A DNA stretch of 64,000 nt from Tricharina praecox. Its lineage: Eukaryota. The notes below the pieces were generated by a model that saw only the letters and a program-made list of their open reading frames with translations, had not been told where the DNA came from and made no database searches. The stretch covers positions 248,001-312,000 of the forward strand of contig NW_026250433.1 in the NCBI RefSeq assembly GCF_024521635.1. The letters are read 5' to 3'. Below, piece by piece: positions 1,960 to 59,951 of the stretch. Within the stretch, counting starts at the first letter, position 1, and every line of letters starts with the position of its first letter. The translations under genes and the position numbers were made by a program.

Positions 1960-3458
1960 CTATGGCTTCGGTGCCTGCCTCATCCGCTGCTTCCTTTCCC
2001 GCTCCAGCTGCGCCAACTTCTTCTGCTCTGCCAACCGCTTCTTTCTTCGGGTCTCGTATTCCTTATGTGTGGCTTCCTTCTGCTTCTCGCTGGCCTATGA
2101 ACTAGTTAGTTGCTTCCGCCCGTCAATGGTAAGGGTGTTTCCATACCGTTTCCTTCAACTTCAACACATTCCACCCCTTCTCACCAGTGCCGCCGGTGAA
2201 TTTATCCAACCAACTTCCGGGCCCACCAATCTGCTTCGGCGTAGCATCGATAACTTGGCTCTCCTCTACAGCGGGACGGACGATATTAAGGGCACTGTAT
2301 CTGGTCGGAGTTTTTGACGCCAACGGATTGGCGGTACCCTCCAGGGCCATAGGATAGAGTCCTAGCTTCTCGCGCACAGTCTCGTTCTTGAGGATGAAGG
2401 TCTGCGCCACTCCAATGGCGGAATTGCACATAATGTAGAAGCCCAAGGCTGCTGGCCACGAGTAGGTGAAAGCAAAGGACACCAGGGGAAGACCGAAGGC
2501 CAGGACGTTCTTCATCGACTTGGCCATGGTGGTGCTTCCGGCCTCTCCACCCTTGTAGATCTGAAAACCGATCAACAGTGATGCAGTCGTGGGAATGATA
2601 AGTGTCGGATCCGCCACCGACAAATCCGAAAACCAAGCTATTCCACCGTCCAGCAGCGCCGGAACTGGAACTTCGGCCATCGACCGGAGAATCTTGTAGA
2701 ATCCGTAGAACACCGGGATCTGCGTGAACGGGAAGATGAGCCACCAGCGGTTTATGCCAGAGACCTGGTACATCTGTGACATCTCGCTGCGGTACTTCAT
2801 CATTTCCGGCATGTCGTTGCGGGCCTGCGCGGCCTTCATCTTCTCCATTACGGGGGTGACGACGGGCTGGATTTCTTTCATGCGCGCGGCAGTGGAGGAC
2901 ATTTGGCAGTAGCCAGGGAATTGCGCGAGACGGACGAGGACGACGGTCGTTAGAATCGTGCCCCACCAAGGAAGCCCGGAGTAAACGTGCACCCCTTCGA
3001 AGAGGGTCTGGATTATGTTCGTGGTGCCCCAGCCGGAGTCAATTCCGAGGGACCTCAGGTAGCCCATCGTCTCTGGCGCGTGCTGGATGACCGTCGAGGT
3101 ATCAAAGTTGTCCAGGTTTGCGAGGAAGGGTGCGGCATCGGTGGTGGTGGGGGAGGATAGCGGGGCAGCAGCGGCGGCAGCGGAGGTTGTGGTGGAATTG
3201 AACCGGACGGTAGTCAAAGAGATTGGCCGCACAGCGTTGGATTGTCGTACTCGAGTCAACGCAGCTGCTGGTCGGAACTGAAGATTGCGTAGAGTATCAG
3301 CACCACGTTTCCTGACGAGTTCTGGGTGCGGTGCTGTCTGTTTGCCGAGGACTGACCTGAGGTGAAATGTGCAGTGATCTGGTCTGAATGCCAGCTGTTG
3401 AGCGTACACAGACTGCATTCTGGAGAGTCCCCAGGCGCATAACCCGTGAAGCCAGCAT
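1960..3458 (-). CDS. OXA1: Mitochondrial inner-membrane insertase Oxa1 (YidC/Oxa1 family)
   Basis: GLPWWGTI, QIPVFYGFY and WFSDLSVADP motifs; Arg-rich presequence from ATG 3458 (MLASRVMRLG); introns near 3356-3278 and 2145-2096; basic C-terminal tail ending at TAG 1960. Confidence 0.93.
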
Positions 3459-56812: not shown

Positions 56813-58147
56813 CTAATCCCGATTCCTGGAAACCAACCACCGTCTCAACGCGACCTCGCGCACCCCGTACTTCTTCAACAAGTGCTGCACCTCCAATCCC
56901 TCGATCGCGCTCGGCGGCGGAACCTCAACGTACACCAGTATGAGCGTCTTCTTGACCTGCGCGCTGACACGGTTGACGCTGTGCAGCCAGTGCCACGGCT
57001 TCGACTCGTTCTTTTTGCGCCCGACGTCGGTGGCCCAGTAGGGGTGTGAGTAAGCAGGCATGACAAGGACGCCGAATTCCGCGTGGGAGAAGACGGGGCC
57101 ACGGTTGTAGAGGACTATTGCATGTCTGTTAGCCATCGTGATGACACACGTGTGATGTGCGAGTGTGTGAGCTTACGGTATTCCACGCCGAACTTCACGC
57201 CAGGCCTGACGACCCAGCCCAACGAGCGGAAGTGGTGATATACGACGTAGTTGAGTAGGAAGGTATCATCGGGTTGAAGATCGGTTTCATCAAGAGGTGG
57301 GAAATACGAGTGTTTTCGGAACAAGCACAGGGCATCGCACACTTCAATGGACTTCTATGATACCAGGAGTATTAGATTTATTGTCTAGATAATAGCAGCG
57401 AAGAAGCACGGCAGCACACACATTTTCTTCAGGTCCTGGTCCCGTAATCCTGAGGGCGCCCAAGCCACATTGCAAGAAAAATGCCTCTTCTAAAGTCAGC
57501 TGCAAGTGCTCAAGATCTTCCACATGGACGACTGGTTTATCTTGCAGCGCATCTTCCTCGTCCTCATCGTCCCCTTCGAGAGGGACGAGTGGCGAAGCAG
57601 CGGCGTCAGGCTCCACCGAACCACCCTCACCAGTTTCCAACAGCTCGATCTTCCCCTCCTGAGCCAACTGATTCTGGATCCTCTCTTTCTCAGCTCTTGC
57701 ACGCTCTAACTTGAACTGGCGCCTATCCTGCCTGCGACGCTCCGTGATCTCCTCCGCCGTTAGATCCTCATTTTTACCAATGACACCGAGGGCCCTTCTC
57801 CTGCGGGAAATCCACGTGGGTTCGGACCGCGACAACGATCCTTTGCCAAAGAACCCGTTGTTCCAGAAAGCCTGGATGGATCGCGTTTCCACAACATGCA
57901 CCGACCGTGTAGCGGGATTGAAGAACCCCGTATACGCCGGAACGGGCTGGCACGGCGACCGACAGAATAGATACGTGTACAAGATTTGTAGGAGCGACAG
58001 CGGGTTGTGGGGGATCAGGGGAGAGAACGGGATGACTGTGAGAGGAAGGGGATTGGCGTGGAGCAAGTGATAGTTTGGCCGCTTTGTCCTCGGTTGAGGG
58101 GGCTTGATGTTTGCGGTGGCCGCCGCGGGTGTTGGTGTTGAACTCAT
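56813..58147 (-). CDS. SEN2: tRNA-splicing endonuclease subunit Sen2
   Basis: GFFGKGSLSRSEP, EHLQLTLEEAFFL, YHHFRSLGWVVRPGVKFG, LYNRGPVFSHAEF, NRVSAQVKK. Confidence 0.95.
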
Positions 58148-58236
58148 GTTATCTGTTTCACCATCTACTTCTTCGTAACGAGTCAGCCATGTTCTCCTGC
58201 AAGTGCTAGTGATAACAAAATGTGCTGGTTCTGATG

Positions 58237-58335
58237 TCGCTCAGATACCGTTGTAGTCAAAGATTGTGCCATCATTGAGGAGCGAACAAAGTCAACGCCG
58301 CTCCCCTAGGCGCAATATTGGTGTCATCAACGCGA
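58237..58335 (-). ncRNA. snR79: Box C/D snoRNA, snR79-like (predicted guide for the 18S Cm1007-equivalent site), intronic
   Basis: Terminal stem TCGC/GCGA; box C TGATGA (58329-58324); C' TGATGG (58274-58269); box D CTGA (58244-58241) preceded by guide GACTACAACGGTAT, complementary to 18S AUACCGUCGUAGUC (recalled yeast sequence, one mismatch); lies within GTATGC..CAG intron 58389-58197. Confidence 0.85.
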
Positions 58336-58905
58336 CGGAGGATATAGTCCTCGTTTAGAGATGCAGCAGAAAGAATTGCGGAAGCATACCTTTTAGAAAT
58401 GAGTGTTGTGGATGGGGTTGAGGTAGGAGGTGAGGACGGAGAGAAAAGAGAGAAGTTTGAAGAGTCAGAGGAGGGATAAAAGAGAAGACGAGGATGACTG
58501 AAAAGCGGAATTTAAACCCCGCCAAAGGCGCTAAACTTCGCCGACAGAGACTGCGGGCTAGGGTTCGAGTGAGTGAGTGGGGTGGAGGGGGGCTCACTGC
58601 CGCCCGCATGGAAACTGGAAACTCTCTTCGGTCGCTACGTTGTGGTTATGGCAGATGGAACGCGGCATGTAGTCAGATAAATATGTGGTATTAGAGAGAA
58701 ATCCCGGAGACGAGTGAGTGCGCTGTGAATTTCGCACAGAATATGACCGCTGCACACCGCCGTCAATCGCCAATCTCTTGAGCCCAACTCCAGTAAATAC
58801 AGGTCTATTGTATACACTGGCAAATGCATATTGTACACGGGTCACCTTGCGGGCCTCTCCCGGGCGCCCTGAATTTTGCCCTCATCCATCCACACTGCCC
58901 TCCAT

Positions 58906-59951
58906 CTATGTTGACGGCGACGGCGCTGGGTCCGGCGCTGAATCCGGCGAAGCCGACGCCGCCTTCCTGGTCTTCGTCAGGATTCGATCGCGAATGAACT
59001 GCACGGCCACGTCACCGCCCTTCTGCAGGGCCACCGCTCCGGTAATCGCGAAGAGGCACTCAAGGGCTACGGGTTGCTGGCCAGATCGCTTCAAGTCCGA
59101 GATCTATTACAGTGGTTAATCAATGCATTCACTCGGCAATAGTTGGCTAAGTGGTGGCGTTCTGTACCTCTGCCGGCTTCCACCGCATCACATTTGGCAA
59201 CCCGACTTCCTCAATCAAGGGCATCAGACGGCTCTCGCTCATAAGACCTTCGATTCGTGCTCCAGTGATGTTCTCAAGGCTCTTGTAGTCTTCGTGGACG
59301 AATGGCTCTGGGTTCTGGTACAGCGATCCCTCCAGAGATTTATAGACCGACGGCTTGGGTTCCTTCGGCCCTCCCTTAAGCGGTACAGACAAGAGGTGGA
59401 TAGATATCTGGGTCTGAAGGAGCCGTTTACCTATAAGGGTAATTGTATCAGCATCTGTCGCTCGTCCTCGCCGAGATATTAAACGATGGCAGGCTGCCTT
59501 AGCGGCGTCGCCGTTGTCCCGCCGCCACCGAGAAGGAAACCATACCCAAGAACTTCAACTTCGAGTTGAACGGCTGCCGTCCGTGATCGAAAGTCTTGTG
59601 CGTGACCGCCTGCCACTTGACATCCTCGGACAATCCCAGGTCCTTCCCGAAAAGCTTCAGATACATGGCATCCAGCACCTCCAAATCATCGTTCACCAAG
59701 AACTCCTTGCGCACACGGTGTGCGATCGGCGCCCGAGGCTGAGGACGGACGTTCTGGAACCGCTCTCCTTGTGTGTATGATAGCCGGGCGGGTCTCCGTT
59801 CGTACTGCTTCCGCTCGTACTGCTGTTCTTCGTGTATGCATCGCTGCTGCGCCGAAGGAAGAATTTGTCGGTTCGGTGTGAATCCGAGCGGGGGCCGCCG
59901 CAGTGTGAGCGACAACAGGGACGAGGCCTGTCGGGATGTCTGGAAGGCCAT
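58906..59951 (-). CDS. MRPL15: Mitochondrial ribosomal large-subunit protein mL57 (RNase III-like)
   Basis: VKWQAVTHKTFDHGRQPFNSKLKFLG|KR, MRWKP, LFAITGAVALQKGG; 2 introns. Confidence 0.9.

Follow-up and report, generated by a model that had tools for sequence, protein, structure and literature searches.

The 5′ leader of the SEN2 gene of Tricharina praecox contains a single intron, and this intron very probably carries the local orthologue of the yeast box C/D snoRNA snR79 and of Neurospora crassa Nc CD18, predicted to guide a methylation of 18S rRNA. Splicing takes this intron out and links a non-coding exon 1 with the SEN2 coding exons in a single transcript. For this filamentous ascomycete the SEN2 locus gains a snoRNA gene at its correct place and a corrected 5′ UTR intron, neither of which is visible to annotation based on ORFs. 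The features of the locus are all on the minus strand of the window, a 64,000-nt stretch of contig NW_026250433.1 (positions 248,001 to 312,000); their coordinates, counted from the first letter of the window, are given in Table 1.

SEN2 and its spliced leader

The protein of the first SEN2 coding exon has 1430 relatives, the best listed of which are named tRNA-splicing endonuclease subunit Sen2; the top relative, sen2 of Rhizina undulata, is 54% identical across 95% of the first-coding-exon query. PF01974 (the catalytic tRNA_int_endo domain) is carried by Sen2 relatives among the matches listed, and the last SEN2 exon alone scores 25.6 bits against it (cut-off 27). The names of the relatives and PF01974 together identify the host gene as SEN2.

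Contigs assembled from runs X1 and X2, which belong to two separate studies and for which the RNA label is only a guess, are identical to the window (zero other letters) and skip three GT..AG intervals (57115–57176, 57355–57421, and 58171–58389); they are therefore derived from cDNA. Two of these intervals are the introns within the SEN2 coding region, and the third is the leader intron of 219 nt. Its joint, 58170/58390, is present in one contig each in X1 and X2 and leads from the non-coding first exon into the SEN2 coding exon. The original prediction had proposed that production of the snoRNA is coupled to the SEN2 transcript, and the joining of exon 1 to the SEN2 coding exons in contigs of both studies supports this coupling. 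The predicted GTATGC donor at 58389 is likewise confirmed, both by sequence and by the spliced contigs, and splicing from 58390 does continue into SEN2, but the partner is 58170 and not 58196 as expected: the TTGCAG at 58197, taken for the acceptor, lies inside the intron and reads CTGTGT in the related metagenome locus L043, and the AG in use is at 58172–58171. Since the intron ends at 58171, the spliced leader between the joint and the ATG at 58147 measures 23 nt and not the 50 nt foreseen. Run X3 (a seawater metatranscriptome) has a single 215-nt contig (57733–57947), within a SEN2 coding exon and outside the leader intron, and run X4 has no match across the window.

Exon 1 had been described as an ATG-free, pyrimidine-rich stretch from 58500 to 58390, and this description holds; the nearest ATG upstream of the stretch is at 58609 on the minus strand. 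Exon 1 is covered in X2 only from 58390 to 58413 (24 nt), and the X1 contig continues upstream past 58900. The block around TTTAAAT, near-identical in L043, probably serves the host transcript as core promoter, and its conservation suggests a transcription start near 58500. The same block holds a near-palindrome, GCGCCTTTGGCG, and the sequence farther upstream diverges from L043.

A gene upstream on the same strand (58829–59951) encodes a domain like that of RNase III (PF14622), which scores 27.1 bits against a cut-off of 35. The transcript contig of this gene in X2 stops at 58829, and in X1 one 4917-nt contig spans this gene, exon 1 and SEN2. In compact genomes contigs can fuse neighbouring transcripts.

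The spliced leader contains an upstream ORF (58145–58164) of 6 codons, which starts with the ATG at 58164–58162 and ends with a TGA that overlaps the SEN2 ATG (ATGA). L043 keeps the upstream ATG, with an ORF of 2 codons. Another upstream ORF (ATG 58190, 10 codons) leaves with the intron.

Table 1. Features of the SEN2 locus and of the snoRNA in its leader intron.
Feature	Position	Strand	Details
SEN2 coding region, 401 aa	56813–58147	−	Coding exons 58147–57422, 57354–57177, 57114–56813
SEN2 coding introns	57421–57355, 57176–57115	−	Both spliced out in contigs
Exon 2 leader, 23 nt	58148–58170	−	Carries short upstream ORF
5′ UTR intron, snoRNA host	58171–58389	−	Joint 58170/58390 in X1 and X2
Acceptor AG in use	58171–58172	−	Spliced contigs
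Branch-point-like CTGAC	58182–58186	−	Conserved in L043
TTGCAG, unused, intron-internal	58197–58202	−	Junction elsewhere; CTGTGT in L043
Box C/D snoRNA, snR79/Nc CD18 orthologue (very probable), ~95–101 nt including terminal stem	58236–58336	−	Rfam, shared guide, covariation
Terminal stem, 5 bp	GTCGC 58336–58332, GCGAC 58240–58236	−	Read in sequence
Box D CUGA	58241–58244	−	Read in sequence
Antisense guide GACTACAACGGTAT (RNA GACUACAACGGUAU)	58245–58258	−	5′ of box D
Box C′ UGAUGG	58269–58274	−	Sequence and alignment
Inner hairpin, D′-like CUAG to box C′, 8 bp	58277–58306	−	Arms GGGGAGCG (58306–58299) and CGCTCCTC (58284–58277)
Box C UUGAUGA	58324–58330	−	Core TGATGA (58329–58324) invariant in 35-sequence alignment
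Flanking hairpin GAGGA-ctata-TCCTC	58338–58352	−	Just 5′ of snoRNA; GAGG/CCTC kept in L043
Donor G|GTATGC	GT at 58389–58388	−	Kept in L043
Non-coding exon 1 of SEN2 host transcript	58390–58500	−	Without ATG; 77% pyrimidine; 3′ end fixed by contigs
Promoter-like block with TTTAAAT (58516–58510)	58480–58560	−	Near-identical in L043; putative role

Structure and identity of the snoRNA

Boxes C and D and the terminal stem place 58336–58236 among the box C/D snoRNAs, and the elements listed in the original prediction as a complete C/D snoRNA (terminal stem, boxes C, C′ and D, inner and flanking hairpins) are all present. Box C agrees with RUGAUGA at all six core positions and has U instead of R as its initial letter. 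The D′ position reads CUAG, not CUGA, and box C′ is clear. The 18-mer formed by guide and box D is single-copy in the window, with 0 matches in 100 shuffles when two mismatches are allowed. The fold of the snoRNA alone is uninformative (z = −1.21).

A search of the whole window against Rfam at gathering thresholds gives 0 matches. In a permissive search of 58000–58700 (701 nt) the best family is snR79 (RF01184; 89 model positions), which matches 58334–58239 with 31.8 bits and an E-value of 0.0042, and the last 18 positions, comprising guide and box D, agree with the snR79 consensus at 18/18. The Rfam check that accompanied the prediction thus returned the expected family, but at a score below its gathering cut-off of 55 bits. 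Two of the metagenome loci (L043 and L010) also fall below this cut-off, and the yeast-like L077 passes it at 85.5 bits. Since the score lies below the cut-off, the snoRNA is classed as an orthologue by its guide, target and gene neighbourhood, and not as an Rfam-threshold member; the call of an snR79-type RNA is borne out by the guide and D box, which are those of both the Rfam consensus and Nc CD18. Other low Rfam matches (LINC00901, snoR66, and ZNFX1-AS1_2; E 1.7–4.8) are attributed to chance.

Both helices covary in an alignment of 35 sequences. In the terminal stem and the D′–C′ hairpin 73.6% of cells are standard-paired, versus 38–51% in slid controls, and the covariation score of 0.391 (0.11–0.17 in the controls) is reached by 0 of 500 shuffles. 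All 13 pairs are altered on both sides somewhere among the 35 sequences: 5/5 in the terminal stem (70% of cells paired) and 8/8 in the inner hairpin (76% paired). Between the window and L043 the snoRNA differs by 5 substitutions in 101 nt and the flanks diverge more; the two that hit helix arms leave a standard pair in place (G-C to G-U and G-U to G-C).

These data bear on whether the element only resembles a snoRNA, through decay or by chance, and lacks a functional guide, in an intron that matters only for SEN2 expression, for example by removing the ATG at 58190. Such a reading would account for the score below the Rfam cut-off and for the degenerate D′ box, and we nevertheless give it a very low probability, as the boxes and guide are intact, the few substitutions relative to L043 preserve pairing within more divergent flanks, and the two helices covary. 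The unusual D′ is moreover a known snR79 trait, as C′/D′ in S. cerevisiae snR79 is described as conserved yet non-consensus and as bound by core proteins (PMC3116282).

The target site in 18S rRNA

Counting by the D+5 rule sets guide G 58249 opposite the second C of 18S AUACCG, in agreement with the site named in the prediction, that of yeast snR79. In yeast the assignment of Cm1007 to snR79 rests on snr79 deletion mutants, which lack this methylation and were used to place the site (PMC5199042). The equivalent of yeast Cm1007 is supported by this rule as the predicted target of the snoRNA guide.

For complementarity the 18S of metagenome locus L026 served as reference; it belongs to another organism and proved to be a full-length eukaryotic SSU rRNA. 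The guide forms 14/14 pairs with it. The Neurospora CD18 duplex is drawn with 11 pairs including the D box and stops where the guide A stands (PMC2780460), which hints that guide position 8 is mismatched in ascomycetes. Many environmental 18S genes (73 rDNA-like loci, among the matches listed) have a U opposite this eighth guide base and so form a perfect 14-bp duplex. The guide may fit the 18S of some lineages better than ascomycete 18S.

The hairpin loop contains GACTTTG (58293–58287, minus strand), a complement of 18S sequence located ~80 nt 3′ of the target. For several snoRNAs the longest internal 18S match falls in one stretch, 76–83 nt 3′ of the target in L026 18S, with lengths of 11 nt (L005 and L072), 9 nt (L019, L053, L057, and L077) and 7 nt (L043, tied). 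A match of 7 nt is by itself at chance level, and the motif is argued to be real because it recurs across lineages. Its position differs, lying between C′ and the guide in yeast-like loci and in the hairpin loop in the window and in most filamentous-type loci. Extra complementarity near the site is known for snR79 in most yeasts (PMC3116282). The longest internal match of the window's snoRNA to L026 18S, 9 nt in a hairpin arm (GGAGCGGCG; SSU position 233), is taken as chance.

A second guide upstream of D′ was considered and ruled out: the region from box C to D′ is unconserved among the 35 sequences and 7-nt matches to L026 18S are scattered. The guide upstream of D′ is called inactive in yeast (PMC3116282). 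In locus L018, whose SEN2 is nearest to that of Pyrenophora, a 14-nt stretch between boxes C and C′ is complementary to L026 18S at position 278 and might there act as a second guide for this lineage; the region between boxes C and C′ of L050 was flagged together with it.

Homologous loci in metagenomes

A metagenome scan with the exact 18-mer of guide and D box found at least 111 loci, which are silent on guide variation because they were chosen by the exact 18-mer. Simple rules sort the matches listed into 73 antisense-18S-rDNA-like loci (e.g. L026 1574–3380), 3 other repeats and 35 snoRNA-like loci, the last having a box C 56–88 nt upstream. Among the matches listed, SEN2 lies directly downstream, on the same strand and within a few hundred bases, in 24 of the 26 snoRNA-like loci with at least 600 nt of downstream sequence, and one of the nine with shorter flanks (L097) shows the start of SEN2; synteny of snR79 and SEN2, proposed earlier as a check, is therefore upheld and the neighbourhood is widely conserved. 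The SEN2 of L043 has 81–92% identity, that of L018 is 78% identical to a Pyrenophora protein and that of L053 58% identical to a Trichophyton protein, and in AT-rich, yeast-like loci the identity is about 30%.

The two exceptions, L010 and L022, have identical snoRNAs, each lying in an intron that separates two coding exons of a lysine-rich gene (around 2100–3200, minus strand), with no SEN2 following; a Pfam search with this alternative host gene in L010 found no family. The snoRNA seems to have switched host gene in these two loci, which counts against the SEN2-hosted orthologue as the best explanation.

Three further loci (L024, L107, and L111) have a different inner architecture and short flanks; in them a coding-looking exon ends immediately 5′ of the snoRNA, pointing to still another host.

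Intron signals were compared in the 33 snoRNA-like loci with enough flank, among the matches listed. In 26/33 a donor-like motif precedes box C by at most 130 nt, and a branch-like motif followed by AG occurs downstream of the snoRNA in 33/33; the donor-like and branch-like motifs are found together in 26/33, versus 11% at random places in those loci. The branch-like motif begins 45–62 nt past box D in 27 of these 33 listed loci, and 54 nt past it in the window, a spacing that fits splicing-coupled snoRNP assembly.

Production of the snoRNA from the SEN2 leader intron

The spliced intron contains one snoRNA, which lies entirely inside it and is separated by 53 nt from the donor and by 53 nt, counted from the terminal stem, from the branch A at 58183, itself 12 nt ahead of the acceptor. 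About 50 nt between snoRNA and branch point is optimal in mammalian work. By location and branch spacing 58336–58236 belongs to the intron-encoded type, with a presumed dependence on splicing. Distances of snoRNAs within Neurospora introns are given in PMC2780460.

By the established pathway, Snu13, Nop56, Nop58 and the methylase Nop1 would assemble on the C/D and C′/D′ motifs during pre-mRNA splicing. The excised lariat would then be debranched, and exonucleases would trim it back as far as the terminal stem shielded by the proteins, giving an RNA of ~100 nt whose guide would pair with 18S and direct 2′-O-methylation at the Cm1007 equivalent, the second C of AUACCG. If the snoRNA derives from the excised intron, one SEN2 pre-mRNA would be spent per snoRNA, and both outputs would thus share one promoter. 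The assembled contigs report on the host transcript; a ~100-nt RNA, with its termini and abundance, is beyond what they can reveal.

Alternatively, a real snoRNA could be made for the most part as a separate short transcript with a dedicated promoter and terminator; the SEN2 leader intron would then simply overlap it, and the two outputs would be uncoupled. The snR79 gene of S. cerevisiae, which is independently transcribed and adjoins SEN2, would be a precedent, and the yeast-like loci L019 and L020 lack a donor-like motif in the 130 nt that precede box C. At the SEN2 locus in the window, however, the sole promoter-like conserved block is upstream of exon 1 and not in the intron, the 53-nt spacing to donor and branch A is typical of splicing-dependent intronic snoRNAs, and the spliced host transcript exists, so that independent transcription appears highly improbable and production from the excised SEN2 intron is preferred.

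A broader proposal is that the link of snR79 to SEN2 is ancestral to ascomycetes and is kept by selection and not by inertia, with the snoRNP on the leader intron and the upstream ORF setting the amount of SEN2 protein per transcript. Behind it stands the breadth of the 24/26 listed loci, which extend from yeast-like ones to those nearest Pleosporales (78%, Pyrenophora Sen2) and Onygenales (58%, Trichophyton Sen2). We regard this proposal as unlikely; if it were true, snoRNP control of SEN2 yield would tie tRNA-splicing capacity to 18S modification.

Comparison with known snR79 genes and intronic snoRNAs

The snoRNA in the window shares with S. cerevisiae snR79 (RF01184) a guide and box D identical to the consensus, the D guide being the only one in use. 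It differs from the snR79 model in being longer (~100 nt versus 89 positions), in its 8-bp D′–C′ hairpin, and in scoring below the Rfam cut-off. Nc CD18 is an 88-nt RNA that was cloned and verified by Northern analysis, with its location entered as 'Intron', its target as 18S-Cm1004 and its homologue as snR79 in both yeasts (PMC2780460). Its 3′ end shares 19 letters with the window, covering guide and D box (PMC2780460), and its internal sequence is different. The tables and supplements of PMC2780460 do not name the host gene of Nc CD18.

The literature search for orf19.2735, which is presumably SEN2, found no paper under that identifier. No paper found in the literature searched has both snR79 and SEN2 or states a pan-ascomycete link, and none combines snoRNA, tRNA-splicing endonuclease, host gene and intron. 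'The fungal snoRNAome' mentions neither snR79 nor a host gene nor synteny in its main text. In the account of PMC5033589, snR79 is located in a 5′ UTR intron of the protein-coding gene orf19.2735 and is syntenic in four Candida-clade species. These hosts are budding yeasts whereas the window is from a filamentous ascomycete, and the name SEN2 is absent from the text of that paper (PMC5033589). Candida-clade yeasts are already known to have snR79 in such an intron, and the Neurospora entry reads 'intron', so the arrangement is less novel than first thought. A leader intron is a known location for snR79, and the window provides a further member that is correct but ordinary; the current view of how such RNAs work is unchanged.

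The closest parallels among other hosts are RPL7/snR59 and NOG2/snR191, in which most fungi keep the snoRNA within the same intron of the host, an arrangement read as co-expression of guide and host (PMC8476143, whose main text does not mention SEN2). RPL7 and NOG2 are ribosome-biogenesis hosts with introns that interrupt coding sequence, whereas SEN2 encodes a tRNA-splicing nuclease and has the intron in its leader. After RPL7/snR59 and NOG2/snR191, SEN2 offers a third example of a fungal intron probably retained for its snoRNA.
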